Source: Chthoniobacteraceae bacterium
GTDB taxonomy: Bacteria > Verrucomicrobiota > Verrucomicrobiia > Chthoniobacterales > Chthoniobacteraceae
Assembly: GCA_031409335.1 (NCBI GenBank)
Contig: JANNWY010000037.1
Span: forward strand, 1-59,637
Direction: 5' to 3'
Length of the DNA: 59,637 nt
Part shown: in pieces, positions 24,707-45,600 of the stretch
How the letters are laid out: the number at the start of each line of letters is the position of its first letter
Position numbering within the stretch: position 1 is the first letter of the stretch
Program-made: the position numbers and the translations under genes
The notes under the pieces: model-generated
What the model saw: only the letters and a program-made list of their open reading frames with translations
Database searches by the model: none
What the model was told of the DNA's origin: nothing

Positions 24707-24747
24707 GTGGCTTTCTGCTGCGGCGGCGCGTTCTGAAAAATTGGACG

Positions 24748-24769
24748 CGCGCCGCTGCGCAGCGGCGCG
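24748..24769. repeat. Perfect 22-bp palindrome between giant genes 2 and 3
   Basis: CGCGCCGCTGCGCAGCGGCGCG equals its own reverse complement. Confidence 0.7.
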
Positions 24770-24883
24770 GGCGTTCGACTGCGGCCCTACCTGCGATCCT
24801 AGCTGTGCTATGCGCGGCAGGGTAGAGGCCTTCTGTCGGTGTCGCGCGTCACTTTCAATCCAACCCAAGACCCCTAGAAGCCC

Positions 24884-27800
24884 ATGAACATGCTGCATCA
24901 AACCGGTTCCCGTCGGCGCCCCTTTCGGCGTCTGATTCTCTCCACCGCCATCCTCCCCGTCGCGCTGGCTGTGCAGGCGTTTGGCGTCGATTGGAGTGGC
25001 CCCGTCACGCTCACCATCAATCCCACGATCAGTGCCGGCTTGCAGGAGGGCCGGATTGATGGAAACCCATTCGACCTTTTTTCTCCGAATCCGTTGAACG
25101 GGCCGAATACCGGCCTGGGTGTGGGTGTCAGCCTTGGAATTCGGATGGGTCAGAGCACTTTGAATTTCGGCGATGGAAGCACCCTCGATCCTGACAATTT
25201 CTGGAGCGACAACCGGACTTGGATTTACACGGGTGAGATCAACTCTGGACCGACCGGACGCCTTTCGTTTGCGGAGAGCATCGACGACAGCACCCAGATC
25301 AAGATCGACGGCATCGTCGTCCTTCAGGATGGAACTTTGGACCCTTCGACGACTGGTGTCCTCAATTTCGCGCCCAACACGTTTCACGCGATCGAAGTGC
25401 GGTTGGGCAATGGCTTCAACAATGCCGGCCCGGTGACGATCAACAACTTCACGCCCACGTACGGATTTGGTTTCAGTCAGACGGGAGCGACCGGCACGGA
25501 CGGCGCAAACTACGTCGCACCGGTCGATCCCGGCACTGGTGCGCTTTTTCACTTCGTCACCGCCGAGGCCGCCGATGCGAATCAGGATATCAATGTTTTG
25601 GGTGCTACGAACGGCGGTGGTGGGACTGCCTACGGAACGACCGTGACTCTATCGAAAGTCACCAACGATCACCTGACCGAAAACAGCATCACGTTCGCGC
25701 CGACGACCGGCAACCTCATTACCCTGATGGTGAACGGAAGCACTCCCGGCGGAACGCTCCGTTCGCTCAATACAGTGCTCGCGGTGGCCAATACGAAAAC
25801 GGTGACCATCACTGGTAACGCGGATTTTGCGCCCGGGGCGCTCTCGACCGGACCCACGCCGGGGGCCGCGACGCTGACGGGCATCAATCTCGTCAAAACC
25901 GGAGTCGGCTCGCTGATTCTCGACAATCCGACAAACGCGCTTGCCGGAACGACGATCAGGGTGGCCGATGGTATGCTCTCGATCCTGGGCAGTGGCGGCA
26001 CGACCACTCCCGTTTCCACATTGATAACGGCGATCGAAATCGGCGGGGCCGGCGCAGTGGCCCCCGTGCTGCGCATTGGCAGCAGCGGTGCCACGGGGAC
26101 GACTTTCAACAACCTTTTCAAGACCACTCAAACCGCGACGCTGGAGCATCTGACCGGAACGACTGATACCATTTCGGGTGCCACCTTTTCTATTACGTCC
26201 GGAAAGACTTTGACCGTGAACGTAGCGGCGGGTGGCTTGGCGATCAATGGAGCCATTGCAGATCCATCCAGCCCGATATCCAACCCCACTTCGGTTCGTG
26301 GCGGGACGCTGAAAAAGATGGGGAACAACACCACGCTGAAACTCAGCGGCGCCATGAGAGTTGCGGGCCTCAATGCCGCCGAAGGCCGGCTTGAAGTTCT
26401 CGGGCAGTTAAACCTTAACAGCAATCCCATCATCGGAGCGAACGCGACTCTGTCGTTGCAGAACACGTCCCTAGTCACGCCAAACATTATTACGTTCAAT
26501 CCGGTGCCCACGACAATCAGCATTCCGACCGGAACGCTCGAAGGCCTTCCCGGTGCGTTCGGAGCAGCGACGAATGTCCTGAGCCTGACGGGCGGAACCC
26601 TCAACCTCGGTGTGGCGGGCCTGACCGCACATCTTTATGACACCGGAGCGGCTGCGGCACAAGCCGCGTTCGGCGGGCCGCTGAATCCCGCGAGAACCTT
26701 TACGGACTACCTCAACTACTTCGCGGGGCGTGGTGCCGGGACCGTGGCGTCCACTGGCGCTGGGGGTGTTGCTCAACTGAGTTTCGGTTCGGGTTTCGCA
26801 AATACGGCAATGTTTGCGGTCCTTGCGCCGAATTACACGAGGACCGACGACATCGTGTCACGGTTAAACGGCAAAATCATCATTACGACGCCTGGACTTT
26901 ATACCTTCGCCACGGATTCCGACGACGGGTCGATGTTATATATTGACGGTGCGACGGTGGTGTCGAATAACGCCTCCCAGGCCCATGTGCGGCGCACCGG
27001 CCAGGTTCAACTCTCCGCTGGATTGCATGACATCGACATTGGGTATTACGAAGGCACCGGTCTGAATGGTTTGATCGTGGATTACGCGGGGCCGGACACG
27101 GCCGATGCGCAAACGGTGATCCCAAACTCGGTGTTGCTGCCTTCGACGGACTTGCAGTGGACGTTCCAGAATCCGATCACCATTTCTCAGAACGCGGTCA
27201 TCAACGCGTTTGCGGTCAGTGTTCCGAGCGTCAAGTTGACCGTGGCTAATAGGACATTGACGGTCAATGGACCAAGGATGGACATTGGTGTGCTCGACCT
27301 CACCACGGGCGGGGCCGGTACCTATACGATCAACGCGACCACGCTGGGCGGCCAGGTCGATGCAAAATCCATCCTCGATGGTGGCAATGCTGTCACGCTG
27401 GTGAACCATGGGTTGGGTGCGCTGATTATCGAAAGTAGTGCGAGCCCACAGCTTCAAAATGCAGGCTCCTCGGTCACGGTGGACGTGGGACCGCTCGGGC
27501 TCGTCCGCGGAACCGGGGAAGGCAATCCAACCGGGAACGCGACCGTCACCGTCAGCAGTGGCAAGATGATTCTGTCGAGCAAGGGTGGCGACCAGACTTT
27601 TCCATTTCCAAATACCTTTGGCGGTGTTGATCGCTCCATTACCGCCACACAGCTCGGGTCGGGTGCCGCAGGGGCCGTCGGCGCTCCGATTCGCACCACC
27701 ATCAGTGGGAACATGACCCTCCCTGCGGGCACGACGCTAAGTCTTAGCTCTTCCAAAAACTACATTCTCGCGGTTGGTGGAGTGACCGGTGCCGGGAGCG

Positions 27801-29080
27801 TTAACGTGCAGGGTGGCGCGGTGGAATCCGCCGCCCCAATCAATTTGACCGGAACCGCCCAGATCACTGTCACAGGCACCAAGTTTACGACGCAGGGTCT
27901 CGCGGCGGGCGCGATCACCGTAACCGACTCGACCCTCACGAATACGGGCACCCTGTCGTCCGGGATAGCCGCCTTGTCTGTCACTCGCAGCACTGTGACC
28001 GCGAACGGTGGCACCTCGGCGGATAGCATCAGCATCGCCGATAGCTTCTACAGCAGCACTGGAGCCCTCGCGACGGGGGCGGGCGGCATCGTCCTTACCG
28101 GCGGCACGTTCAAGTCATCCACCCTTCAACTCCGCGGCGGCACGATTTCCGGCGGAGTGATTGCCGCCCAGAATGGGATCATCCATGTGGCTGAAGGGAC
28201 TACGGTAGCCGCCACGTCCGCGACCTTCACCGGCAACGTTAGCCCGACCGGCCTGCTGGCGCGCTTCATCAGCCGCGGCGGAACAGGGGCGCTTTATGCC
28301 GGGAATACACAAGCCGGGGTTTTGGCGATGCAGACACTTCCGGCTGCCGCACAGACATTTCTGACGAACGCGCTTTCGTTTGTCCCCAATGCGGATGCGA
28401 CGGTTTCAACGTTCTTCGGCGGCGGCGTGAACACCGCTACGTTTGCCATGGGTTTCTTTGGAAACTTCACCGCACCGACATCCGGCAGTTACCGATTCCA
28501 GATCGCGCAAGTGGATGACACTGCCGGCTTCTGGATCGATTTGGATGGTGATAACGTATTCGAAACGGCTGGGTCGAGTGGCAACGAATTGGCGTCGCAA
28601 ATTGGGGCCGTCGGCAATGGAGGCATCGGCACTGTGACCCTTGTCGGCGGGAGGAGCTACAACGTCGCGATGTCGTTGGAGGATACCGGGGGAGCATCGG
28701 GTGTCGAGGCGCGCTTCGCTCTTCCGGGCGAACCCAGCTTGTCCGTTGTGAACCCAAGCGATCCGGCGCAGGCAGGCTTGTGGACATACGCATTGCCGAA
28801 TCAGGTCAACGTGGACGCAGGCGCTGAACTCGACATTGAGGCGATCAATGGGAACGTGGATGTGCTGGTTAAGGGCCGCCTCGAATTCGACGGCGCGGGT
28901 TCAAGCACCATCAACTCGCTGACCATCGGTGCTGGAGGAGTCGTCGAGATCGGTGCTGGAGCGCCAGCACCCGCCGAGGGCTTCGCCGAATCCGCAGCGG
29001 TGCCAGAGCCCGGTGTCGCCAGCCTGATGCTCCTCGGAGCGCTCGGCGTGCTCGGTCGCCGTCGCGCCAATAGAGCGTAA
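24884..29080 (+). CDS. PEP-CTERM surface protein with three PA14-like domains and beta-strand repeats (1398 aa)
   Basis: Signal peptide; PA14-like segments SFAESIDDSTQIKIDG, YTFATDSDDGSMLYIDG...GLHDIDIGYYEGTG and YRFQIAQVDDTAGFWID; C-terminal VPEPGVASLMLLGALGVLGRRRANRA. Confidence 0.88.
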   Translation: MNMLHQTGSRRRPFRRLILSTAILPVALAVQAFGVDWSGPVTLTINPTISAGLQEGRIDGNPFDLFSPNPLNGPNTGLGVGVSLGIRMGQSTLNFGDGSTLDPDNFWSDNRTWIYTGEINSGPTGRLSFAESIDDSTQIKIDGIVVLQDGTLDPSTTGVLNFAPNTFHAIEVRLGNGFNNAGPVTINNFTPTYGFGFSQTGATGTDGANYVAPVDPGTGALFHFVTAEAADANQDINVLGATNGGGGTAYGTTVTLSKVTNDHLTENSITFAPTTGNLITLMVNGSTPGGTLRSLNTVLAVANTKTVTITGNADFAPGALSTGPTPGAATLTGINLVKTGVGSLILDNPTNALAGTTIRVADGMLSILGSGGTTTPVSTLITAIEIGGAGAVAPVLRIGSSGATGTTFNNLFKTTQTATLEHLTGTTDTISGATFSITSGKTLTVNVAAGGLAINGAIADPSSPISNPTSVRGGTLKKMGNNTTLKLSGAMRVAGLNAAEGRLEVLGQLNLNSNPIIGANATLSLQNTSLVTPNIITFNPVPTTISIPTGTLEGLPGAFGAATNVLSLTGGTLNLGVAGLTAHLYDTGAAAAQAAFGGPLNPARTFTDYLNYFAGRGAGTVASTGAGGVAQLSFGSGFANTAMFAVLAPNYTRTDDIVSRLNGKIIITTPGLYTFATDSDDGSMLYIDGATVVSNNASQAHVRRTGQVQLSAGLHDIDIGYYEGTGLNGLIVDYAGPDTADAQTVIPNSVLLPSTDLQWTFQNPITISQNAVINAFAVSVPSVKLTVANRTLTVNGPRMDIGVLDLTTGGAGTYTINATTLGGQVDAKSILDGGNAVTLVNHGLGALIIESSASPQLQNAGSSVTVDVGPLGLVRGTGEGNPTGNATVTVSSGKMILSSKGGDQTFPFPNTFGGVDRSITATQLGSGAAGAVGAPIRTTISGNMTLPAGTTLSLSSSKNYILAVGGVTGAGSVNVQGGAVESAAPINLTGTAQITVTGTKFTTQGLAAGAITVTDSTLTNTGTLSSGIAALSVTRSTVTANGGTSADSISIADSFYSSTGALATGAGGIVLTGGTFKSSTLQLRGGTISGGVIAAQNGIIHVAEGTTVAATSATFTGNVSPTGLLARFISRGGTGALYAGNTQAGVLAMQTLPAAAQTFLTNALSFVPNADATVSTFFGGGVNTATFAMGFFGNFTAPTSGSYRFQIAQVDDTAGFWIDLDGDNVFETAGSSGNELASQIGAVGNGGIGTVTLVGGRSYNVAMSLEDTGGASGVEARFALPGEPSLSVVNPSDPAQAGLWTYALPNQVNVDAGAELDIEAINGNVDVLVKGRLEFDGAGSSTINSLTIGAGGVVEIGAGAPAPAEGFAESAAVPEPGVASLMLLGALGVLGRRRANRA

Positions 29081-29093
29081 TCAACGTTCATAA

Positions 29094-30557
<1,464 letters not shown>

Positions 30558-30560
30558 AGA

Positions 30561-30596
30561 AATGACTAATGACGCGATGGCCAATGACCGATGGTC
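30561..30596 (+). repeat. Degenerate heptamer tandem repeat at the left edge of the defence cassette
   Basis: AATGACT AATGACG c GATGGCC AATGACC GATGGTC directly after the purA stop. Confidence 0.55.
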
Positions 30597-30633
30597 AGGC
30601 GCTGCGCGAAGAGTGTAGAAGTGTGGTTTCGCT

Positions 30634-32967
30634 ATGGCTCGGAGCTACTATCAACTTGCGATTCACCATCCCGGTCTGAACAAACACCGAGTGATTCGAG
30701 GCAATGACCGTTACCACGTCGAAGGTGCGGCGGCGGCGCAGCAGAGGGCTTGGGCGGAGCAGTATGCGCGGAAGATTGCGATGGATGAGCGAAGAAGGGA
30801 TCGCGATGGCAAGAGGCAGGAACTAGAGGACAATCAGGCCGAGGCAGAGGAGCGAACGGCGGAAGCGCAGGCGGCGTTAAATGAGTTGCGCGGAGTGCTC
30901 GCGGCGACATTGCGCGTGGATAATTGTGTGGATTGGGCTGCGATGATGCAGCCGCCATTTTCACAAACGAAGCCGAAGGAACGCCCGTATCTCCCGCTGC
31001 CGCCGGAGCCGGTTTTTGATCCAAATGGATGGCGGCAGCAAAAGGGCTTCGTTACGACATTGGTCCCATTTCTGGCAAACCGGGCGGAGACAGCCGCCCG
31101 CACCGAGTTCGGTTTAGCGCATTTGAAATGGCGCGAGCGCAGGGACGCCGCGCAAGCGACGAATGAAAAAATCTACGCGGAAAATCTGCGCGATTTCGAG
31201 GACTGGCAGCGGCGGGCCGTAGCTCACGAAAAAGCCCGAATCCGGCACAACGCATCCGTTGAGCAGTCGCGGGCAGCATATCAGGCGCTCGATGCCGATG
31301 CGATTCTCGACTACTGCGATTTGGTTCTCTCGGAGTCGCAATATCCAGACTGCTTTCCGAAGGAATTTGAGTTGGAATACAGGGTTGCGACAAGGACGCT
31401 GATCGTCGCATATCAGTTACCTGCGGCAGATAATTTGCCCCGCCTCGAAAGTGTAAAGTTCTCGCGCACGAAGGGCGACTTCATTGAAACCGAACTCACA
31501 AAACGTGAGTTTGAGCAGCTATACAGCGACGTGGTTTTCCAAATCGCCATTCGCACGGTGCATGAGCTTTTCGAAGCGGATGTAGTGCGAGCGCTCGATT
31601 CGGTGATTTTCAACGGTAACGTCCGCGCGTTGAACGCGGGCACAGGGCATAATGAAGATCGCTGCATCCTCTCCGTTCGTGCCGGGCGTGCGGTTTTTGA
31701 GGCGATCAATCTGCGGAACATCGAACCGCGTGCGTGCTTTGAATCCCTCGGTGGTGTCGCGGGCGCGAAAATACTCGATTGCCGCGCAGTGAAGCCCCTA
31801 GGTGAGATCGACAAGAGCGAAAAGCGATTTACGACAGCACAGGATGTCTCCGGCGAAAGCGGAACGGGCTTGGATGAGTGGCATGAATTGGTGAAGGCAA
31901 TTTCCGATCCGCAAGACATCCGTTTTCTTCCGGTCGGCACGGTCGCCGCATTGGTCGGCTTCCCCGCACAGGAAAAGTTTTCCATGGCGCTGAGCAAAGA
32001 GCTTGCGGATGCGGTCGCGGCGCGAGGCTATGCGATCGAACCGGATGTGCGCTACGGCGCGGCGACTTATCGCGCGGAGGATGAAATCGCGCTCTTTCGC
32101 CCGCTGGCAACGGCAGTCACCGCTGCGTATCCCGGTGCGGCTGCCCTGCTCCAATTGTGCGTGATGATTGCGGCGGCTGATGAGCACCCGACTGACAAAG
32201 AGTTGGAAGTTGTCCGTGAGTTCATCCGACAAAACGCGCAGCTCACATCGCAGGAGCAACAGCGGTTGCTTGCCTTGGAGCACTACCTTTGCCGCAATCC
32301 CGATACGGCGACGCGTTCGCTCGCGCGGCTGGCGAAACGTCTCCCGCCAGCGCAGCGGCAGCTTGTCGGGGAAGTGCTAGTCTGTGTCGCGGGGGCGGAT
32401 GGCGTTATCAGTTCCGTCGAATGGCGGGCTCTTGAGCGTGCTTGCAAGGTGCTCGAACTGCCGCCGGACGCGCTCGATGAAATCCTTCGAAAACTGGGTG
32501 CGAATTTTGACGAGGCGACCATGCAGGAAGCAGAGCCCGCCGCTCCCGGCGAACCGCTGCCCGTTATGCCGCCCGCGTCAACGGCTCCGTCTTTCACGCT
32601 CGATATGTCGCGTGTCGCGGCGATTTCGCACGAGACGGCGGAAGTTATTGGTCTGCTTTCAACGGTAATGAGCGAGGATGAAGCGAAGCCCGCACCCAAG
32701 CCGCAGACCGCGCCGACGATCGCACGGCAAACGCCCGCGTGGCTCGGCAACCTCGACATGAAATATCACGTTATCGCTGCGCGCATCGTCACCAAACCTG
32801 CATGGCCGCGTGCCGAGTTTCAGCAACTCGCTGCCGAGTTCAATTTGATGCCGCTCGGTGTTTTCGACGCGCTTAATGAATGGGCCGACGAACAACTCGG
32901 CGACTTTCTTCTCGACGGCGACAATCCCGTGACCGTGAACACTTCCATCCTCCCAAAACAACCATGA
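30634..32967 (+). CDS. TerB/TerB_C domain protein (Shango SngA-like) with atypical, Mrr-associated-like N-terminal half
   Basis: Two TerB-like units (MIAAADEHPTDKE; CVAGADGVISSVE) and a TerB_C-like end (WPRAEFQQLAAEFNLMPLGVFDALNEWA..LGDFLLDG). N-terminal ~400 aa: coiled coil then VLSESQYPDCFP, YSDVVFQIAIRTVHELFEAD, FNG, CILS, EPRACF. Confidence 0.8.
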   Translation: MARSYYQLAIHHPGLNKHRVIRGNDRYHVEGAAAAQQRAWAEQYARKIAMDERRRDRDGKRQELEDNQAEAEERTAEAQAALNELRGVLAATLRVDNCVDWAAMMQPPFSQTKPKERPYLPLPPEPVFDPNGWRQQKGFVTTLVPFLANRAETAARTEFGLAHLKWRERRDAAQATNEKIYAENLRDFEDWQRRAVAHEKARIRHNASVEQSRAAYQALDADAILDYCDLVLSESQYPDCFPKEFELEYRVATRTLIVAYQLPAADNLPRLESVKFSRTKGDFIETELTKREFEQLYSDVVFQIAIRTVHELFEADVVRALDSVIFNGNVRALNAGTGHNEDRCILSVRAGRAVFEAINLRNIEPRACFESLGGVAGAKILDCRAVKPLGEIDKSEKRFTTAQDVSGESGTGLDEWHELVKAISDPQDIRFLPVGTVAALVGFPAQEKFSMALSKELADAVAARGYAIEPDVRYGAATYRAEDEIALFRPLATAVTAAYPGAAALLQLCVMIAAADEHPTDKELEVVREFIRQNAQLTSQEQQRLLALEHYLCRNPDTATRSLARLAKRLPPAQRQLVGEVLVCVAGADGVISSVEWRALERACKVLELPPDALDEILRKLGANFDEATMQEAEPAAPGEPLPVMPPASTAPSFTLDMSRVAAISHETAEVIGLLSTVMSEDEAKPAPKPQTAPTIARQTPAWLGNLDMKYHVIAARIVTKPAWPRAEFQQLAAEFNLMPLGVFDALNEWADEQLGDFLLDGDNPVTVNTSILPKQP

Positions 32968-34298
32968 GCGAAATTAAGCGGCGTGAGCGCGACGCCATTC
33001 TCCAATCGTTGCAAGCGGGCCTCGTCCCTCGCCTCGGTCTGCATTTGCTCCAAGTCGGTCGCAAAGATGAAGTAGCGGCACTGCTCAAAGACCTTGAGCG
33101 GATCGAGCAGGGTGGGGCGGCCTTTCGCATCGTCGTTGGGCGATTCGGCAGCGGGAAAAGTTTCTTTCTAAACCTCATCCGCACGCTCGCGCTGCAAAAA
33201 CGGCTCGTCGTCGCGCAGGCGGATTTCACGATGGAGCGCCGCATTCGTTCAACGGGCGGTGAGGCTCGCGCGCTCTATTCGGAATTGATGCGAAACATCG
33301 CCACGAAGGCGAAGCCCGACGGCGGCGCGCTCCGCAATCTGTGTGAAGGCTGGATTTCCGACGTGCATCACGAAGTCACCAGCGGAGGCGGCAGCGAGGA
33401 GGACGTGAAGCGTCGCATCATCGAAGATTTGCGTGGGCTGCAAGAGCACGTCGGCGGCTTTGCGTTCGCGGAAGTGCTCGGCAAATACTACGAAGGCCAC
33501 GCGGGCGGGAATGAAACGATCCAAGGAAACGCCCTCCGCTGGCTGCGCGGCGAATATGCGACGAAGACGGAAGCGCGCCAAGACCTTGGAGTGCGCGACA
33601 TCATCGAGGACGAAAACTTTTACGACAGCCTCAAGCTCATGGGGGCGTTTTGCGCGAAGGCGGGGTTTGGCGGTCTCCTGATCGGCTTGGATGAATTGGT
33701 GGTGCTCTCTCATCGCCTGCCCAACACGCGCGTTCGGCAGGCGAACTACGAGGCGCTGCTCTCCATCATCAATGACTGCTACCAAGGAGGCGCGGCCAAC
33801 CTCGGCTTCGTGCTCGCGGGCACAAACGAATGTTTGGAGGATAAGCGTCGCGGACTTCACAGTTACGAAGCTCTGCGCTCGCGACTCGTGGAAAACGGCT
33901 TCGCGGGCGAGGACGTGCGTGATTTGTCCGGCCCCGTGGTGCGGCTACAGAATCTCACGCCGGAAGATTTGTTCGTTCTGCTCCGCAACATTCGCCACGT
34001 CCACGCGAGCGGCGATGCGGCGAAATATCTCGTTCCCGACGACGCGCTCGTATCCGTCTTGCAGCGAGCGAACGAAACGCTTGGCGCAGAGTATTTCAAA
34101 ACGCCGCGCGACGTGGTGCGCTCGTTTGTCGGTTTGCTGAATGTGTTGGAGCAACACCCCGGCAAAACGTGGCAGGAACTTGTTGGTGCGAATTTCATCA
34201 AAAAGGCGGACGCACCAGCATCGGTGGAGGAGGAAATCGCGCTCGGCGTCGCGACTCCCGTCGATGATGACGGCGACCTCAAGACCTTCAAACTCTGA
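32964..34298 (+). CDS. DUF2791/BrxD-like P-loop ATPase (Shango SngB-like)
   Basis: ATG 32964 overlaps the upstream TGA (ATGA). ILQSLQAGLVPRLGL..QVGR, Walker A GRFGSGKS, ALRWLRGEY, Walker B LLIGLDE, SYEALRSRL, TPRDVVR. Confidence 0.9.
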   Translation: MSEIKRRERDAILQSLQAGLVPRLGLHLLQVGRKDEVAALLKDLERIEQGGAAFRIVVGRFGSGKSFFLNLIRTLALQKRLVVAQADFTMERRIRSTGGEARALYSELMRNIATKAKPDGGALRNLCEGWISDVHHEVTSGGGSEEDVKRRIIEDLRGLQEHVGGFAFAEVLGKYYEGHAGGNETIQGNALRWLRGEYATKTEARQDLGVRDIIEDENFYDSLKLMGAFCAKAGFGGLLIGLDELVVLSHRLPNTRVRQANYEALLSIINDCYQGGAANLGFVLAGTNECLEDKRRGLHSYEALRSRLVENGFAGEDVRDLSGPVVRLQNLTPEDLFVLLRNIRHVHASGDAAKYLVPDDALVSVLQRANETLGAEYFKTPRDVVRSFVGLLNVLEQHPGKTWQELVGANFIKKADAPASVEEEIALGVATPVDDDGDLKTFKL

Positions 34299-36604
34299 TG
34301 AGCGCGGCAGCCTACTCGCTGCTGCATCCCGGTGTGCAGAAGGCAATTTTCCGGCGGGGCTGGAAGGAACTGCATCACATTCAAGTCGAGGCCATCAACG
34401 GGCTGCTCGGTGGCACGGGGCATCTGCTCATCTGCGCGCAGACGGCGGGCGGAAAAACGGAGGCCGCGTTTCTGCCCATCATTTCGCGGCTCGCCGAGAA
34501 TCCCCGCCCGTCCGTTCAGGCACTTTACGTTGGCCCGCTCGTCGCGCTCATAAATGACCAATTTTCGCGGCTGGAAACGCTCTGCGCGGACGTGGAAGTG
34601 CCTGTGCATCGCTGGCACGGTGCGGCGTCGACCACTGAAAAGCGGAAGCTGCGCGACTCGCCCGGCGGCATCCTGCTCATCACGCCGGAATCGCTGGAAT
34701 CCAACTTCATCAACTACGGCGTCCACCTGCGGCGCATCTACGCGGAACTGGATTTCATCGTCATCGACGAATTGCACTCGTTCCTTTCCAACGTGCGTGG
34801 CGTGCATCTTCGCAGCCTCCTCGCACGGCTCTCCGCCGCGACGGGCCGCAAGGCGCGCATCATCGGCCTTTCCGCGACACTCGGCGACCCGCAAGGCGCG
34901 CGCAGTTTCATCGCGCCCGATGCGCCAGAGACCGTGAGCATCATCCATGGCACGGGCGACCAAGCGGTGAAGTTTGGCATCAAGGCGTATCTCCGCCGGG
35001 AAGAAGTTGCAGGCGACAAGGTGCGACGCTGGCATCCGAGTGCGGCACTCGACGCGGCGGTTGCGCTGACACCAGAGCAGGCGCGCGATTCGCGTCCTTT
35101 TGGCAAGCTCCGTGAAACTGAGAATGAAATCTCCTCAGCGAAGGCAGACGAACTCGACGACATCGCTGCCGATGTCCTCCAAACCTGCGCGGACGGAACG
35201 AACCTCGTTTTCGGCAACGCGAAGCAGGGTTTGGAAATCCTCGCGGACAGGCTCCACGCGCGAGTGAAAGCGCTACGCCTGCCACGCGACCCTTTCCACA
35301 TTCACCACGGCTCGCTTTCCAAGGACGTGCGCGAGGAAACGGAGGCGATTTTGAAAAGCGGACAGCCCGCGACGGTGCTTTGCTCCAGCACCCTGGAAAT
35401 GGGAATAGACATCGGCTCCGTGCGGCGCGTGGCGCAGCTCGACCCGCCGTGGAGCGTGGCATCCATGCGGCAGCGGCTCGGGCGCTCTGGACGCCGCCCC
35501 GGTGATGTCGCTGTGATGCGGATTTACTCGCGAGACGAATCGCCGCACGCGGCAAGCACCATCACCGATTTGCTTTTTCCCAAGTTGCTCCGCGCCGTCG
35601 CGCTCTCGCGGCTGATGTTTGCGAAATGGCTGGAGCCCCACGACGCGGACCGGCTCGATCTCAGCACGCTCGTTCACCAAATCCTCAGTTGTCTCCGTGA
35701 GACGGGCGGGACGCCCACCGGGGCGCTGTTCGCGGTACTCGTGAAGGACGGCGCGTTTCGCAATGTGAGCGAGGCCATGTTCCGCAGCGTGCTTCGCTCG
35801 CTCGGCGGAAAACAACTCATCGAGCAAATGCCCACGGGCGAACTCATCCTCGCGCCCTGGGGCGAGCGCATCACTGCGGAGCGCGATTTCTACGCGGCGT
35901 TCGCATCCAGCGAGGAATTTTTCGTTCGGCACGATACTCACGAAATCGGGAAGCTGCAAAGCTCGCTCGTCCCACCAATCGGCGAAAATCTCATCCTCGC
36001 AGGACGGCGCTGGGTTGTGGTGCTGATTGATTCCATCGCCAAGACAGCCTGGGTGCAACCAACGAAGGGAGGCAAAGCGCCCGTCTTTCTCGGCACGGCT
36101 GGTGAGATTCATACGCGCATCGTCGAGGAAATGGCCGCCACGCTCGCCGATGTGGACGAACCGCCTTACCTCGACGGCGCAGCACAAACACTTCTCAAAG
36201 CCGCGCGTGAAACTGCGTTGCGCGCTGGCGTCCTCGCGCCCGGATACATCGTCCGGCCCGAGTCAGTGCAATGGTTCCCCTGGCTCGGCACGCGCGGTTT
36301 GCTCACATTGAAGCTTCACGCGAAATGCGACGGCCTCGCGGCGGAGTGCGACACGCTATCCATCACCTACAACAAAACCGACCCCGTTCGCTGGCGCGCG
36401 CATCTCGAATCCATCTCGCGCGGCGACCGCACCGCGCTCGAACTTGCGCAACACATGGACGTGAAAACCTTCGACAAGTTTGACGAAACGCTCGCGGAGG
36501 AATTGCTGGACGAGGCGAACGCCCGCGACAGGCTCGACCTGCCCGGCGCGAACCTGCGCGCGAGGCAAGCCATTCACGCCCTCGCCACCACCGCGAAGCC
36601 ATGA
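34298..36604 (+). CDS. Lhr-like DEAD/DEAH-box helicase (Shango SngC / BrxHI-like)
   Basis: TGATG overlap. AQTAGGKTEAA, ITPESLE, IDELH, GLSAT, HHGSL, STLEMGIDIG, QRLGRSGR. Confidence 0.92.
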   Translation: MSAAAYSLLHPGVQKAIFRRGWKELHHIQVEAINGLLGGTGHLLICAQTAGGKTEAAFLPIISRLAENPRPSVQALYVGPLVALINDQFSRLETLCADVEVPVHRWHGAASTTEKRKLRDSPGGILLITPESLESNFINYGVHLRRIYAELDFIVIDELHSFLSNVRGVHLRSLLARLSAATGRKARIIGLSATLGDPQGARSFIAPDAPETVSIIHGTGDQAVKFGIKAYLRREEVAGDKVRRWHPSAALDAAVALTPEQARDSRPFGKLRETENEISSAKADELDDIAADVLQTCADGTNLVFGNAKQGLEILADRLHARVKALRLPRDPFHIHHGSLSKDVREETEAILKSGQPATVLCSSTLEMGIDIGSVRRVAQLDPPWSVASMRQRLGRSGRRPGDVAVMRIYSRDESPHAASTITDLLFPKLLRAVALSRLMFAKWLEPHDADRLDLSTLVHQILSCLRETGGTPTGALFAVLVKDGAFRNVSEAMFRSVLRSLGGKQLIEQMPTGELILAPWGERITAERDFYAAFASSEEFFVRHDTHEIGKLQSSLVPPIGENLILAGRRWVVVLIDSIAKTAWVQPTKGGKAPVFLGTAGEIHTRIVEEMAATLADVDEPPYLDGAAQTLLKAARETALRAGVLAPGYIVRPESVQWFPWLGTRGLLTLKLHAKCDGLAAECDTLSITYNKTDPVRWRAHLESISRGDRTALELAQHMDVKTFDKFDETLAEELLDEANARDRLDLPGANLRARQAIHALATTAKP

Positions 36605-37383
36605 AGCCATCGTCCGAGAACGAAACGCCCGGCGACTTACCGCACGTTGGCCTTATGGAAATCGCCGTGCTCGTGCTCTCCGTGTATGTGCTCGGCGCGC
36701 TTCTCGCGCAGATCGTTTTTCACGTCCCGCCGGAAGTCAGCCTGCTTCTGGACCACATTGATGCCTTCGTGTGCGTCGTTTTTCTCGCCGACTTCGCGGT
36801 GCGCTTCCGGCGGGCACCGTCGAAGCTGGCTTTCATGAAGTGGGGCTGGATCGACCTCATTTCCAGCATCCCCGCTTACGACTTCCTCCGCTGGGGGCGC
36901 ATGGTGCGGATCATCCGCATAGTGCGCATTCTGCGGGCATTCGGTTCCACGCGGCGCCTCGTCGCCGCCCTTTACCGCAATCGCACCAGGAGCCTCGCGC
37001 TGACAACCTTGCTCACCGCGTCGGTGCTCGTCATTTTTTCGTCCATCGCCGTGCTCGCATTTGAGGACAAAAATGAATCGAGCATCCGCACACCCTTCGA
37101 CGCTCTGTGGTGGGCGGTTTCCACCATGACAACTGTCGGCTACGGCGACACGGTTCCGGTGACGGTCGAGGGGAAAATCGTCGCGATGATTCTCATGGTC
37201 ACGGGCGTTGGCCTTTTCGGCGTGCTCACCGGACTTTTCGCGCGGCTCTTCATGGAGCCGGATCTGAAAAAGGAGGACGCCGACATTTCAGCGCTCACCA
37301 CAGAAATTCGCGTTCTGCATGAGCGCATGGAGCGCATTGAGGGAAAACTAGATGAAGCATCGCGCAAAATCCTGGGTGGCTAA
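36601..37383 (+). CDS. 6TM voltage-gated potassium channel
   Basis: Selectivity filter WWAVSTMTTVGYGD, S4-like RWGRMVRIIRIVRILR, C-terminal coiled coil. ATGA overlap with the helicase stop. Confidence 0.93.
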   Translation: MKPSSENETPGDLPHVGLMEIAVLVLSVYVLGALLAQIVFHVPPEVSLLLDHIDAFVCVVFLADFAVRFRRAPSKLAFMKWGWIDLISSIPAYDFLRWGRMVRIIRIVRILRAFGSTRRLVAALYRNRTRSLALTTLLTASVLVIFSSIAVLAFEDKNESSIRTPFDALWWAVSTMTTVGYGDTVPVTVEGKIVAMILMVTGVGLFGVLTGLFARLFMEPDLKKEDADISALTTEIRVLHERMERIEGKLDEASRKILGG

Positions 37384-37409
37384 GTGACGCAATCGCGCAC
37401 CGTGCCGGC

Positions 37410-37631
37410 TCAGACCGCGAAGAGGTCCGCGACTTTCAGCGTGAGCGCCACGGAGCGCAGGGTGAATGGCGCTTCCATCCCGCGCACGATTTCGAGCGGC
37501 TCCCAGCCGTCGGCGCGGCGGGAGATTTGCACTTCGGGGGCCTCGGGATTCGGATCGATGGTCACGAATTGTTCGAGCGTTTCGATGCGCGGATAGGTCG
37601 CGCGGCTTTCCCCACAGGCAAAGGTCCGCCG
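37410..37631 (-). pseudogene. C-terminal remnant of a Uma2/DUF820-family endonuclease
   Basis: ...GESRATYPRIETLEQFVTIDP..PEVQISRRADGW..EIVRGMEAPFTLRSVALTLKVADLFAV* resembles Uma2 C-termini. The N-terminal PD..EVLS part is missing. Confidence 0.6.
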
Positions 37632-37699
37632 GTGCGGGCGCGGCTTGGGCGGGATTGACTGGTGGTTATTTCCGCGCGCCGATGTTAATGCAATCCGCA

Positions 37700-38398
37700 A
37701 TGACCCTGCCACGCCACATCGCCATCATCATGGATGGCAACGGTCGCTGGGCGAAAGAGCGCGGGCTGCCGCGGATCAAGGGGCACGAGCAGGGCTCGGA
37801 GTCGGTGCGCGCGGTGACGGAGGAATGCGTGGAGCTCGGCGTCGAGTTTCTCACCGTGTATGCGTTCTCCACGGAAAACTGGAAACGTCCACCCGAGGAA
37901 GTGCAGGCGCTCTGGCTGTTGCTCGAACATTTCATCGCGCAGGAAATCCCGACGCTGATGAAAAACAACGTCCGGCTGCGCACCATCGGGCGCATTCACG
38001 AACTGCCCGAAAGCTGCCAGCGCGCACTGTCCGACGCCATCGCGCAGACCGCTCAAAACACGGCGACCAAGCTCATCCTCGCGCTGAACTACAGCAGCCG
38101 CACCGAACTCGTCGATGCCACGCGCGCGCTTTGCGCGCAGGCCGCGGCGGGTGCGCTCGACCCCGCGCGCATCGACGCCGACACGATCAGCGCGCACCTT
38201 TACACCCACGACATTCCCGATCCCGACCTGCTCATCCGCACCTCCGGCGAGCTGCGCCTTTCCAACTTTCTGCTGTGGCAACTCAGCTACACCGAGATCG
38301 TCGTGACCCCGAAACTCTGGCCTGATTTTGGGAAACAGGAACTGCGTGATGCGATCGCAGAGTTCAAGAAACGGCAGCGTCGCTACGGCGGCGTGTGA
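37700..38398 (+). CDS. uppS: Undecaprenyl diphosphate synthase (isoprenyl transferase)
   Basis: PRHIAIIMDGNGRWA, YAFSTENWKRP, PDPDLLIRTSGELRLSNFLLWQ, RRYGG. Start could also be 37682 or 37688. Confidence 0.97.
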   Translation: MTLPRHIAIIMDGNGRWAKERGLPRIKGHEQGSESVRAVTEECVELGVEFLTVYAFSTENWKRPPEEVQALWLLLEHFIAQEIPTLMKNNVRLRTIGRIHELPESCQRALSDAIAQTAQNTATKLILALNYSSRTELVDATRALCAQAAAGALDPARIDADTISAHLYTHDIPDPDLLIRTSGELRLSNFLLWQLSYTEIVVTPKLWPDFGKQELRDAIAEFKKRQRRYGGV

Positions 38399-39604: not shown

Positions 39605-39687
39605 GGATTCTGACTACCCACTTTTCCTGAAATAGACGGTCGCGGTTGCTGAGTATGTCACTAGCCTGCGTGCGGGCTTACGAACTT

Positions 39688-42600
39688 ATGAATTCCTCCT
39701 CGTTCCGGCAGTTGCGGTGCAAACAGGCTTCCGCGCGTGGCAGGATCGAGCCGCTGGAAAGCCGCATCGCTCCGGCGCTCGCGAGTCCTTTTCCGCTCGG
39801 CGGCGTGGATGGTGCGAATGGGTTTCATCTTTCGGGGCTCGGCGCTTCGGGGTTTGCCGATCGACCGGCGGCGGGGGCGGGGGATGTGAATGGGGATGGT
39901 TTCGACGATGTGATTTTCGGCGCATCGGGGATCAATGCGGCGTTCGTCGTGTTTGGAAAGGCGGATGGTTTTCCCGCGGATCTGAATCTCACGACGCTCG
40001 ATGGCACGAACGGATTTCGCATCGATGGCACGGCGGCTTCGCGGTCGTTCGGGCAGGTCGTGAGCGCGGCGGGCGATCTGAATGGCGATGGGTTTGCGGA
40101 TGTCGTCGTCGGCGCGTTTAACGAAACCATCGGCGCGCGTTTTCAGGCCGGTGCGGCTTACGTCGTTTTTGGAAAGGCGACGTTCGCCGCGAATTTTTCG
40201 ATCGCGGCGCTCGATGGCCCGAATGGCTTCAAAGTCAGCGGCGTGTTGGCGAACGATCAGACGGGTTCGGAACTCGGCGCGGCGGGCGATCTCAATGGCG
40301 ACGGCTTCGACGATGTAGTCGTCGCTGCGCCGGGCGCGAATGTGCGCGGCTCCCCGGATGGCAGCGCGTTTGTCGTCTTCGGGCGGGCGGGCGGCTTCGC
40401 GGCTTCGCTCGCGCTCGGCGCGCTCACGGGCGCGAATGGTTTTCGAATCAACGGCGCGGCGGTGTCCGATTTTTTCGGCCAGCGGCCTTCCTCCGCGGGC
40501 GATGTGAATGGCGACGGGTTCGGCGATCTCATCGTCGGTGCGCCGGGCGCGGATGCGAACGGCGCGAATTCCGGCGCGGCCTACGTAATTTTTGGGCGGA
40601 CGAATTTCGCCGCGACCCTCGAAGTCTCCGCGCTCACTGGCGCGAATGGTTTTCGCCTGCGCGGTGCGGCGGCGGGCGACCGCGCGGGGTTTTCCGTGGC
40701 GGGCGGTGGCGATGTGAATGGCGACGGTTTCGCGGATGTGGTGGTTGGCGCGTTTTTGGCGAATGCGAATGGCGTCGGCAGCGGCGCGGCTTACGTGGTC
40801 TTTGGCAAGGCGAGGGGCTTTGCCGCGAGTGTCGCGCTCGCAACCCTCGATGGCACCAATGGCTTTCGCCTGTCCGGCGAGGAGGCGCAGGCGCGCACCG
40901 GCTACTCGGTGCATCTCGCGGACGATGTGAATGGCGACGGTTTCGACGACGTGATCGTGAGCGCGCTGGGCTTCTCCGGGCGCGCGAGCAACGCTACTTC
41001 CTACGTCGTCTATGGACAGCCGGGATTCTCCGCGAGCATCGCGCTCGCGGACGTCGGCGTGGACGAGGGCGTGGCTGGCGTGAAGCTCCTCCGCGCGCAG
41101 GCGAACGACAGCTCGGGCAGCAACATCGGGGGTGGCGACATCAATGGCAACGGTTTCGAGGACATCGTGAGCAGCGATCTTTTCGGCGGCGCGGTGGTCT
41201 TCGGCTCGGGCTCGCCCGTCGTCTCGCAGCTCGGCGACAAGACGGCGAACACACTCACCGGCAGTGCCTTCAAGGACATCCTCATCGGAGGCGCGGCGGG
41301 CGATTTGCTTTTGGGAAATGGCGGCGCGGATGTGCTGCGCGGCGGGCAGGGCGACGACGTGCTCGCGATCAGCGACCTGAGTTTTTTCAAAATCGCGGGC
41401 GGTCTCGGCACCGACACGCTGCGGCTCGATAGCGCGGGGCTTTCCCTTGATCTCACTATGATTCGGGACGCGAAAATCCAGGGCATCGAACGCATCGACC
41501 TCACCGGCTCGGGCGCGAACACGCTCACGCTCACCGCGCGCGAGGTGCTGAATCTTTCGCCCACCACGAACACGCTCACCGTCCTCGGCAACGCCGACGA
41601 CCGCGTGAACTTCGGCGCGGGCTGGATTCGCGAGGCGAACCAGACGGATGGGGCGACGACGCTGAAAGTTTTCACCAACGGCGCGGCCACACTGCGCATC
41701 GCCGATGCAGTCGGCTCGCCGCTGCCGAAGGGTTACGTGTTGTCGATCGCGGGCACCGCTCTGCCGGGCCTGACGTTAAATGGCGCTGCAAACGATGCGG
41801 CAGCCTTTGTCGGCTCCGCAGGGGATGTGAATGGCGACGGCTTTGATGATTTTCTCATCGGCGCGATCCGCGAGTCTGCCAACGGTGCCTATTCCGGCGC
41901 GGCTTACGTCGTCTTTGGCAAAGCGGGTGGCCTCACCTCGCCGCTCGAACTCGCCAGCCTCAACGGGACGAACGGCTTCGCCATCCGCGGCGCGGCGGCG
42001 GCGGAACTGCTCGGCGGCAGCGTGAGCGCGGCGGGCGATTTCAATGGCGACGGTTTCGGCGACATCATCGTCGGTGCGACTAATTCCTTCGTCGGCACCA
42101 GTACGGGCGCGGCTTATGTGATCTTCGGAAAAGCAGGCCCGTTCGCCCCGGTGCTCGAAGTCTCCGCGCTCAATGGCACGAATGGCTTCAAGTTGCGCGG
42201 CGCTTCCCCCGGCGACCAGGCTGGCCGCGCCGTGCATTCGGCGGGCGACGTGAATGGCGACGGCTTCGATGATGTGGTGATCGGCGCGACGGCCGTGAAG
42301 ACCGGCGCGGTGCTGTTCACGGGCCGCGCCTACGTCGTCTTCGGACGCGCGACGAGCCCCGGCGCGACGCTCGATCTCGCCTCGCTAAATGGCGCGAATG
42401 GTTTTGCCATCGCGGGCGTCACGTCCGTCGCGCAAGTCGGCGGAACGGTGGGCGGCGGCGATGTGAACGGCGACGGCTTTAGCGATGTGATCGTGGGCGC
42501 GATCGGCACGGGGAAAACCCACGTCGTTTTCGGCAAGGCCACGCCCTTCGCGCCGACGCTCGCCGTCACCGCGCTCAATGGCACAAACGGTTTCACGATC

Positions 42601-45600
42601 AATGGCGGTGCCCGGGATCCCGCGGCCAGCGTCAGCGCGGCGGGTGATGTGAATGGCGACGGCCTCGGCGATTTGCTCATCGCCTCGGCTTTCGTGGTCT
42701 TTGGCAAGGCCGGCAACACCTTTGGCGCGACCGTGAATCTGGCGGCGCTCACGGGCGCGAACGGCTTTCGCATCGACGTGAAGAACGTGGACGTCTCCCG
42801 CCAAAACTTGAGTGCCGCGGGCGACGTGAATGGCGACGGTTTCGACGATGTGCTCCTCGGCGCGCCCCGCACCGACTCGCGGGGCAGGGAAAGCGGCGAG
42901 GCTTACATCATCTACGGGGCTCCCGGGTTTGGTGCCGTGTTCAATCTCGCGGGGCTCGACGGAAAAAATGGCTTCGCGCTGCTCGGCGACCTTCCCTTCG
43001 CCCGCGCCGGAGCGACCGTGAGCAACGCGTGCGATGTGAATGGCGACGGCTTCGACGATGTGCTCGTCGGCAGCTACGGCCCGCTCTCCGGCGGAAATGC
43101 GTCGGGCCGCGACTATCTCATCTTCGGCTTCGACAGCGGCGCGGTGACGCAGCGCGGCGATGCGGGTGCGAACACACTGACTGCGACGGCGGGACGCGAT
43201 GTGATCGTGGCCGGGCAGGGCAATGACACGGTGCTCGACGCGGGCTTCGGCGATGTGCTGCGCGGCGGGCAGGGCGACGATAATTTCTCGCTCACGAGCG
43301 GCCCGTTGAAGCGCATCGTCGGCGGGCACGGCTTCGACACGCTCGCGCTCAATGGCGGGCTGCTGCTCGATCTCACCGCGCGCCCCGTCTATCGCATCAA
43401 CGGATTCGAGCAGATCGATCTGCGCGCCGGCGCGAACAGCCTCTCGCTCGACGCGCGGTCGCTGCTGAATTTTTCGCCCGACACGAACACCCTCATCGTC
43501 CGCGCCAATGCCGACGACATCGTGAACATCGGCAAGCCCTCCGACTGGACCGCGCTCGGCACCGAAGTCATCGACGGCGACACCTTCACCGTGCTCCAGC
43601 AAGGGCAGGCGATTTTGAAAGTGAGCAGCTTCATCGCGCCGGTCGTGACGCTCGTGAATCCGACCACCGCGACCTACACCGACGTGGACGGCGATCTCGT
43701 GACGATCAAGACCAGCAAAGGAACGCTGGGCCTCTCGGACTTTTTTCTTTTCAGCTCCGGCGCGGTCGGCGGCGCGCAACTCGCGGCGGTGAACTTCGAG
43801 GATGACGGCGCGGAATTTCGCAACGCGGACCTCACGATCACCGCCGCGCGCACGGCCATCGGCGGCGATGGGCGCGTGAATGTGGGGCGCATCGACGCGA
43901 CCGGCGTCGATCTCCGAAACGTGAGCGTCGAGGGCGATCTGCGCGCGATTTTTGCGGGCGATGCGAACCTCGTCACCACCGGACTCGCGGCGCTGACGAT
44001 CGGCTCGATGGGCCGCCTGGGCTTGTCCACGCAAGGCGGGAGCGGCTTTGGCTTCAGCACCGTGCAGGGTGAACTGGGCGCGCTGAATATCGGGAGCGAT
44101 CTCGTGAGTGCGCCGATCAATGTTTCGGTTGGCGCGGGGAAACTCGGGTTCGGCGCGGTGAACATCGGCGGTTCGATTCTCGGCGGTGTCGAAATTTTCA
44201 CCGGGCTGACCACCGACGGCGCGGCGGGGGCGATCGTGATCGGGCAGGACATTCGCGGCGGGACCGGAGAAAGCACGGGCCGGATTTTCGTCGGCGGAAA
44301 TATCGCGAGCCTCACCGTCGGCGGCTCGGTGGTCGGCGGCAGCGGCGCGTTCAGCGGCGCGGTTTTTTCACAAGGCACCATCGGCGCGGTGAAGATTGGT
44401 GGCGACCTGGATTCCAGCATCATCGCGGCGCGCAACGGCGTCGCGTCGGCCAGCATCGCGGGCAGCGTTTTGAATTCGCGCATCCTCGCCGGCTACGACT
44501 CGTCGATCGCGCCGGTGAATGCCGACGCCACCATCGGCGCGGTCGCGGTCGCGGGCGATTGGGTCGCGAGCAGCCTCGTGGCGGGCGCGATGTCCACCGA
44601 TGCGTTTTTTGGAAATGGCGGGGACGCGCTCATCGCGGGCGGCGATCCCGCGAAGGTCGCGACAATCGCGAGCATCGCCATCGCGGGGCAGGTGCTCGGC
44701 ACCGTCGGCGGCGCGGATTTTTACGGATTCGTCGCCGAGCGCATCGTCAGCTTCTCGGTCGGCGGCACCGCCTTCCCGCTGACCGCCGGACGCTCGAACG
44801 ACCTCGCGGGCCTCGATGTCGGCGCGACTTTCGATGTGAAAGTGCGCGAGGTGAACGGCACCGCGTCGCCCGCCGTGTCGAGCGATCCCGGCGCGTCCGG
44901 CTTCCCGCTCGGCTCGCTCGATGGCACGAACGGCTTCCGTTTCAACGGCACTCCCACCGACTTCGACTTGGGTCGCGGCGTCGCCGCCGCGGGCGATGTG
45001 AATGGCGATGGGTTCGGCGATTTCATCGTCGGCGCACCCGGCGGAAATACCGTCGCCGGGATCGCTTTCGGCGAAGCCTACGTCGTCTTCGGTCGCGCGG
45101 GCGGCGCGCCGCCGGTGCTCGCCACCACCGCGCTCGATGGCACGAACGGCTTCCGCATCAATGACAGCGTGCCGGACGGAACTGGCGGCCCGCAGCTCGG
45201 CCTCGCGGTCGGCGGCGCGGGCGATGTGAATGGCGACGGCTTTGACGATGTGATTGTCGGCGAGATCGCGAGCGGCGGTCTCTCCGGCACGCGCGAGGCG
45301 GCGTTCGTGATTTTTGGCAAAGCGTCCGCCTTCACCGCGACCGTGGATGTGAATGCGCTGAACGGCGCAAACGGTTTCACCCTCACGCGCCCGCTCGCCG
45401 TCGATCCGAGTTCCAGCACCTTCTTCCGCATGAGCACGAGCGGCGTCGGCGACTTGAACCAGGACGGCTTCGACGACATCGCGATCGGCGCGGTGAACGC
45501 GGATTTCACCGCGCAAAATGCGGGCGCGCTCTTCGTCTATTTTGGAAAGGCGATATCACCCGCGAACGTCGATCTCACCACGCTCAATGGCACGAACGGC

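Follow-up and report, generated by a model that had tools for sequence, protein, structure and literature searches.

In the Chthoniobacteraceae bacterium from which our window is taken (contig JANNWY010000037.1 of assembly GCA_031409335.1; 59,637 nucleotides), three genes resembling the antiphage system Shango are directly followed by a gene for a voltage-gated-type K+ channel. Why should such a channel be the last gene of a defense cassette? The preliminary description of this locus proposed that it might be a fourth component of Shango. Our analysis leads to a different answer, to which the sequence comparisons give about an even chance of being right: the channel would be an optional anti-phage accessory that was recruited by several defense systems, and not a fixed fourth subunit.

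The inserted cassette and its channel gene

Four intact open reading frames, all on the + strand, lie between purA upstream (29286-30557, +; start codon inferred) and uppS downstream (37700-38398, +; start codon inferred from relatives). They are a variant of sngA (30634-32967, +; 777 aa, Pfam domains TerB and TerB_C), sngB (32964-34298, +; 444 aa, BrxC_BrxD or DUF2791), sngC (34298-36604, +; 768 aa, DEAD and Helicase_C, an Lhr-like superfamily 2 (SF2) helicase) and the channel gene (36601-37383, +; 260 aa, Ion_trans). Each gene overlaps the stop codon of the preceding one, by ATGA at 32964-32967, TGATG at 34296-34300 and ATGA at 36601-36604, and the purA-uppS junction holds no other intact cargo. 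The two flanking genes are contiguous in relatives G002, G003 (two contigs), G004 and G488, while a search of G001 for the junction matched neither flank. Metagenome contigs, considered relatives because they were compared at 85% likeness, join positions 30550, 30557 or 30567 directly to 37699-37712. The whole block of about 7.1 kb (30558-37699, no strand assigned), channel included, is therefore an insert, and the four genes arrived together. A channel resident beside purA and uppS without the trio was not seen in the relatives with contiguous flanks.

The GC content at third codon positions is 0.63-0.75 inside the block versus 0.80 in purA and uppS. No convincing direct or inverted repeats were found at the insert ends, no target-site duplication, integrase or transposase was seen in the insert and its flanks, and a promoter and terminator scan of the locus gave matches at chance level only. 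At its left edge (30558-30600), the insert reuses AAATGACT, with which uppS begins in G003; a short, imperfect run of AATGAC-type repeats comes next. Between the channel gene and uppS, a short frame on the - strand (37410-37712), which we presume to resemble the C-terminal end of a Uma2-family endonuclease, has no Pfam match at E 0.01 and is probably a remnant.

The second gene encodes a DUF2791/BrxD-family P-loop ATPase with intact Walker A (GRFGSGKS) and Walker B (LLIGLDE) motifs, and the third a helicase with intact motifs I, II (DELH), III and VI. In PADLOC both matched Shango best, with 537 bits for SngB versus 142 for BrxD and 724 bits for SngC versus 382 for BrxHI; the ATPase also fell below the NCBIfam cut-off for BrxD (141.7 versus 350 bits). 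The first gene matches PADLOC SngA at residues 455-774 only (E 1.7e-30), with TerB at 504-616 and TerB_C at 651-774 in Pfam. The trio has the three adjacent, co-oriented genes by which Shango is defined, and resembles the TerB-domain protein, DUF2791 ATPase and SF2 helicase in the accessible portions of the published descriptions (Johnson et al., PMC10250203; Millman et al., 10.1101/2022.05.11.491447). We file it as a Shango variant and not as canonical Shango because its SngA has neither TerB_N nor an N-terminal membrane helix; phage protection is a prediction. In place of TerB_N it has a region derived from Mrr-type proteins (region X, discussed below), and its sngC is coupled to a channel gene, with no channel mentioned in the same portions of the Shango descriptions. 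The cassette is a horizontally inserted Shango variant with the channel as its last gene.

These results bear out the preliminary description for the gene layout with its three overlaps, the position between purA and uppS, the Shango composition of the trio and the intact six-transmembrane channel. The parallel it drew with BrxD and BrxHI of type 2 BREX (bacteriophage exclusion) extends to the families of the ATPase and helicase only, since the scores lie far under those for Shango. A type 2 BREX reading was rejected: the ATPase is below the BrxD cut-off, the purA-uppS interval holds no more than four intact genes, and none of these is another BREX gene. Calling gene 1 a TerB-domain protein was correct for TerB and TerB_C and overlooked the chimeric, Mrr-type front.

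The fourth gene product matches Pfam Ion_trans (E 7.5e-24) and has the features of a six-transmembrane voltage-gated K+ (Kv) channel, i.e., helices S1-S6, an S4 arginine ladder and a TVGYG selectivity filter. By motif reading, the ladder (36889-36936, +) is intact, with an arginine at every third residue from R97 to R112; R97, R100, R106, R109 and R112 are invariant and R103 nearly so in 13 channel homologues. The filter (residues 178-182; 37132-37146, +; also by motif reading) lies in an intact TMTTVGYGD stretch. The AlphaFold2 (AF2) model (predicted local distance difference test score, pLDDT, 84.4) ends in one long C-terminal helix, and neither the model nor Pfam revealed an RCK domain or a cyclic-nucleotide- or other nucleotide-binding domain. 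Its best Foldseek matches are Kv2.1, Kv1.2 and Shaker, and the closest solved relative by sequence is 6uwm (E 2.8e-20), which we take to be KvAP. With this channel and the MVP type (NF040645), the window channel shares S1-S6, the S4 ladder, TVGYG and the absence of a regulatory domain. It is distant from both (E 2.8e-20 to 6uwm; 45.6 bits versus an NF040645 cut-off of 300) and differs further in being patchily distributed (13 of 151 genomes of the bacterial family) and linked to defense genes. A weak match to a hyperpolarization-activated family was also found. The protein is a putative voltage-gated-type K+ channel without a ligand domain, for which current and gating polarity are predicted.

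Over eight cassettes, the median ratio of nonsynonymous to synonymous distances (dN/dS) is 0.14 for the channel, 0.13 for SngC and 0.06 for SngB, and the channel is under purifying selection. In several pairs the dS of the channel exceeds that of SngC, e.g., 1.20 versus 0.60 between the window and L035, which suggests that channel alleles were exchanged in place.

Neighborhoods of the channel family

The channel was counted near SngB in four sets of genomes or loci. Among 20 GTDB loci chosen by SngB peptides, with the channel sought within 6 kb, it was present in 11 and absent from 7, the other 2 loci being truncated. A census of the whole bacterial family (151 genomes, the window's included) found the channel in 13 genomes (14 genes), SngB in 12 and both in 7, where 1.0 was expected (nominal p = 4e-6). 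The two genes were adjacent in all seven shared genomes, and two of the five SngB contigs without a channel end inside SngC (G007, G554). In a second order, Limisphaerales (the order of G567; 281 genomes), the channel was found in 25 genomes, SngB in 19 (20 loci) and both in 11, with 1.7 expected; the channel was adjacent at 8 of the 20 SngB loci and on a separate contig in 3 genomes. The census and the Limisphaerales set overlap the first set and contain kin, and their trials are not independent. The preliminary description had allowed that the channel might never occur with homologous trios; 11 of 20, 7 of 12 and 8 of 20 loci carry it. The linkage is beyond chance. It is strong in these two verrucomicrobial groups and not seen elsewhere, and it is real but optional, as many intact trios lack a channel (close intact examples are L039, L040 and L044). 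At L040 (9622-11422), which holds a sister cassette of the X1 type (see below), the channel position is occupied by a PIN7 protein and a patatin-like phospholipase resembling effectors of CBASS (cyclic oligonucleotide-based antiphage signaling systems).

Four layouts of the channel relative to Shango were observed: downstream, upstream co-oriented, upstream divergent and convergent. At many distinct insertion sites in two orders it stays the last gene. On a 45-row SngB tree the channel occurs in four supported clades, forcing at least seven gains or losses. A channel tree of 72 rows contained 22 Shango-adjacent channels (all that were long enough), 22 adjacent to other defense genes and 28 chosen others. 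The Shango-adjacent channels are scattered over this tree, and a single clade was rejected by the approximately unbiased (AU) test (p = 0.0015), the tested group being defined by neighborhood after an earlier quick channel tree had been viewed. The single clade that the preliminary description had suggested looking for, i.e., a Shango-linked subfamily of channels, is thereby rejected. Several separate channel lineages adjoin Shango and other defense genes.

In the family census, 12 of the 14 channel genes directly neighbor a defense gene, either established or candidate. Eight adjoin Shango genes and one follows a C-terminal remnant of SngC (G501). One, in the window's own genome (contigs C324/C95), follows X2 and SNIPE-like genes, one has Lamassu LmuABC on one side and an Hhe-like gene on the other (G562), and one precedes an HsdR_N_2 protein (G498), which has no PADLOC match at E 1e-8 and is a candidate defense gene only; the other two (G542, G564) have no defense neighbor. 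Of the 80 metagenome channels that are closest, 23 have a partner gene as their neighbor, compared with 0 of 21 other K+ channel-like loci. These partners are Shango (4), X2 or SNIPE-like (6), Mrr (2) and HsdR_N-like (11), several of them near-duplicates. Such partners were also found for 4 of 80 channels on viral contigs. Close channel relatives stand directly behind a prophage CI repressor in L269 and L271, in L269 also ahead of an integrase-like frame; another, in L273, is flanked by an HNH gene on one side and a DUF4236/X gene on the other. A search of GenBank phages gave no channel match at E 1e-8. According to one survey, recurrence beside many unrelated defense systems is the usual signature of a gene that is itself a defense gene (10.1101/2022.05.11.491447).

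The channel is also repeatedly paired with an HSDR_N_2 protein of about 280 aa, across several channel clades and viral contigs (L209, L078, L079, L114, L129, L135, L137, L178, L180, L244, L253, L275 and L299). This pair is a candidate two-gene defense module. In G354, the channel has X2 and SNIPE genes on one side and an HSDR_N_2 gene on the other.

Explanations for the association

If the channel is an optional anti-phage accessory, it would be shut at the resting potential. Injection of a phage genome would briefly depolarize the membrane, so that S4 would move and the channel open. K+ would then leave the cell, first drawing the potential back toward the K+ equilibrium; should the phage pore persist, K+ would be drained and the infected cell slowed. 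Repolarization or K+ drain would buy time during which SngA-SngB-SngC, predicted to comprise a sensor close to the membrane, an ATPase loader and a DNA helicase, could act upon the incoming DNA. A channel with S4 as its only evident sensor fits such a direct response to the voltage change of injection. In the literature, phage injection is accompanied by transient depolarization and K+ efflux (10.64898/2026.01.24.701513), SNIPE acts at the inner membrane (10.1101/2025.11.03.685801), TerB systems are suspected of membrane surveillance and Shango is tied to the membrane. A wider form of the accessory reading is conceivable though doubtful. In this form, the minimal Kv family would be a stand-alone sensor and effector of phage entry that would read the depolarization of injection itself, without a second messenger, and would be added next to Shango, SNIPE-like, HsdR_N-like and Lamassu systems as well as to prophage repressor operons, with the X arm as a common targeting module exchanged among Shango, Mrr and SNIPE.

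A number of observations weigh against recruitment as a defense accessory. The p-values overstate the association because kin are not independent, and 8 of the 9 Shango-channel cases in the bacterial family probably descend from one cassette. In the fourth set, an even phylum sample of 400 genomes, the channel occurred in 26, a SngB-like gene in 18 and both in 1, on different contigs (p = 0.71). Around the 18 SngB-like loci, including the 6 that have an SngA-like gene, there is no channel out to about 7 kb. Only 3 of the 26 channels in this sample have a partner from the query set, and most lie amid housekeeping genes. The query set was partly chosen after loci had been viewed, and the flanks of the other K+ channel-like control loci were shorter (1.5 kb). 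Among plasmids, where 682 records contain a SngB-like gene, there was no channel match at E 1e-25, and only 1 of 11 SNIPE-like loci in the bacterial family has the channel next to it. Finally, some cassettes are damaged by either decay or assembly errors: SngC frames are split in L035 (7335-9641) and L037 (7335-10413), the latter with a channel that has no filter tyrosine, and in G501 (L206:7202-7561) an intact channel follows the last 120 codons of sngC. Twelve loci of the phylum sample (L187-L198) have SngB-like genes (40-46%), 11 of them also SngC-like genes (~35%), with no SngA-like gene detected; they represent a different ATPase-helicase system.

Several of these observations are also what would be expected if the channel were ordinary cargo for K+ or membrane-potential housekeeping, hitch-hiking at insertion hot spots that it shares with defense genes. 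The mostly housekeeping neighbors and the lack of co-occurrence with SngB at the phylum level agree with this, as do the 57 of 80 metagenome loci without a query-set partner (though many contigs are short), the channels of G542 and G564, and the channel retained beside the SngC remnant in G501. On the other hand, the window site is a core purA-uppS junction free of other intact cargo, and the channel keeps its terminal position at many insertion sites in two orders. Channels of separate lineages came to lie beside Shango, in four different layouts, and none of the 21 other K+ channel-like loci has such neighbors. We consider housekeeping cargo an unlikely explanation.

The channel could also be a true fourth subunit of a Shango subtype, bound or gated by SngA-SngB-SngC, that kills or arrests the cell as HalA does in Hailong. 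Hailong (HalA/HalB; PMC13434031, PMC13586616) likewise uses a K+ channel-like tetrameric pore in phage defense, but oligo-dA, the product of HalB, gates HalA, which admits Na+, whereas the window channel combines a voltage sensor with a K+ filter. Scanning the insert with Pfam and PADLOC gave no HalB nucleotidyltransferase and no PADLOC match for the channel, PADLOC being a tool that reportedly does not detect Hailong (PMC13586616); membership in Hailong was rejected as the insert has no adjacent nucleotidyltransferase gene.

For a fourth subunit speak the ATGA coupling to sngC, which is conserved in 6 further loci (10 junctions compared), and the correlation that channel and SngC distances show within the clade of the window (Mantel rho 0.64, p = 0.007, 28 pairs). 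The window SngA also lacks the membrane anchor that is present in a TerB_N-type SngA. Replacement of this lost anchor by the channel was not supported, however, since the channel accompanies 13 of 26 anchor-less and 2 of 9 TerB_N-type SngA loci, a difference that is not significant (p = 0.24). A complex prediction of four copies of channel residues 122-255 with SngA residues 410-777 favored neither reading (score 0.00 in two runs, for which controls were not folded). The dedicated fourth component of the preliminary description is not supported: three-gene Shango was sufficient to protect cells from phage (PMC10250203), the intact trios L039, L040 and L044 are close relatives without a channel, and the Shango-adjacent channels do not form one clade. 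Furthermore, divergent and convergent layouts occur, the same channel clade serves SNIPE-like and Mrr loci, the family adjoins SNIPE-like, HsdR_N-like and Lamassu genes and enters prophage immunity regions just as readily, and the channel has no cytoplasmic ligand domain. A fourth subunit is accordingly judged improbable.

Depolarization-activated K+ channels by nature repolarize the membrane. That the channel merely offsets the membrane or K+ cost of membrane-associated defense proteins, or aids recovery after a defeated injection, with no phage block of its own, is very improbable: its partners are varied and SNIPE lets infected cells survive (PMC13434031), but 10 of 11 SNIPE-like loci in the bacterial family and many Shango loci lack a channel, and a place in prophage repressor operons would better fit exclusion functions.

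The front of SngA and other genes

Residues 22-422 of SngA match the PADLOC type IV restriction enzyme profile mREase_IV (E 3e-31), with the nuclease end missing. We delimit an X region at residues 1-407 (30634-31854, +) from its AF2 model and its homology to the non-catalytic front of Mrr_cat nucleases. Residues 6-407 align with the Mrr-type nuclease P0061 at 41% identity over 407 aa, and the alignment stops just ahead of the Mrr_cat domain of P0061, which begins at 430. Pfam gave no match to Mrr_cat (PF04471) or to TerB_N in the window protein, though L008, L051, L052 and L054 have TerB_N, and a hydropathy scan revealed no N-terminal hydrophobic or membrane helix. A Mrr-like type IV enzyme was rejected as the identity of gene 1 because Mrr_cat is absent; TerB and TerB_C stand where this nuclease would be. 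We read X as derived from the non-catalytic front of Mrr-type nucleases and SngA as a chimera.

Among 120 homologues of X listed, the first 59 are closely related (46-97% identity) and mostly contain TerB and TerB_C; nearly all others are Mrr_cat proteins (30-41% identity). X is also distantly homologous to stand-alone and DUF4236-fused proteins. The AF2 model (pLDDT 89.5) consists of a beta hairpin, a long antiparallel coiled coil and an alpha/beta core. A fold search with this 430-residue model, which is above the advised size, gave no Foldseek match at E 0.001 and a best Z of 6.9 (background); in the ESM Atlas, one DUF4236 cluster at 0.86 among the near clusters is a candidate lead.

A second subfamily, X2 (E 1e-5 to 1e-9 against the X profile), occurs as a fusion with TerB at many Shango loci of Limisphaerales, and X1, the type of the window, occurs in two separate clades of the 45-row SngB tree. 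SngA thus has no fewer than three exchangeable fronts: TerB_N, X1 and X2. Stand-alone X2 directly precedes homologues of SNIPE/PD-Lambda-1 in 9 of the 11 loci fetched from the bacterial family, and a DUF4041 gene on a Fibrella plasmid. Since X takes the place of TerB_N here, bears the Mrr nuclease in other proteins and occurs by itself ahead of SNIPE-like genes, we predict that it is an exchangeable targeting arm of SngA. Like the cassette in our mechanism, SNIPE acts at the inner membrane during injection, and its homologues adjoin both the channel family and stand-alone X; it lies outside the window cassette and is described as a single gene in a text whose searched part contains neither 'potassium' nor 'Mrr' (10.1101/2025.11.03.685801).

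The stand-alone X2 proteins of about 330-380 aa have no Pfam or PADLOC match and often overlap the start of the SNIPE-like gene (L214-L224, L102, L104, L199, L202); together the two genes may be an undescribed two-gene form of SNIPE. The window's genome has two such pairs, one on C200 (L215) and one spanning the contig ends of C324 (L214 6011-8091) and C95 (L009:1-1746), which overlap by 47 identical residues. Behind the latter pair comes another copy of the channel (67% identity to that of the window). An X2-like DUF4236/hypothetical protein lies inside a ter cluster on a Klebsiella plasmid (L266:8167-9390, NZ_MW598231.1) and an X2-like protein beside a PP2C-kinase-DUF475 cluster on a Hymenobacter plasmid (L203:4860-5855), so X is linked to Ter-type stress clusters as well.

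Elsewhere in the window, 14675-29080 and 39646-46965 encode very large secreted-type proteins: two of 3343 and 1398 aa that have repeats and tails we take to be PEP-CTERM-like, and a 2439-aa frame with presumably FG-GAP-like repeats that appears to switch reading frame near its end.

No paper that connects a Kv channel with Shango came up in a literature search that covered openly accessible text; subscription journals and the supplementary tables of large defense-prediction studies could list one. The channel bears on the mechanism of Shango and on the little-known cellular role of simple bacterial voltage-gated K+ channels, and the exchange of SngA front ends points to where Shango specificity lies. 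The channel effectors described in the literature consulted are gated by nucleic acid or nucleotide, and voltage gating would be a different trigger. As a single gene of 260 residues that close relatives have either together with the trio or without it, the channel allows the Shango and the Kv question to be tested directly in a laboratory strain. If the wider form of the accessory reading is true, prokaryotic Kv channels would gain an immune role and membrane voltage would become a signal of infection.

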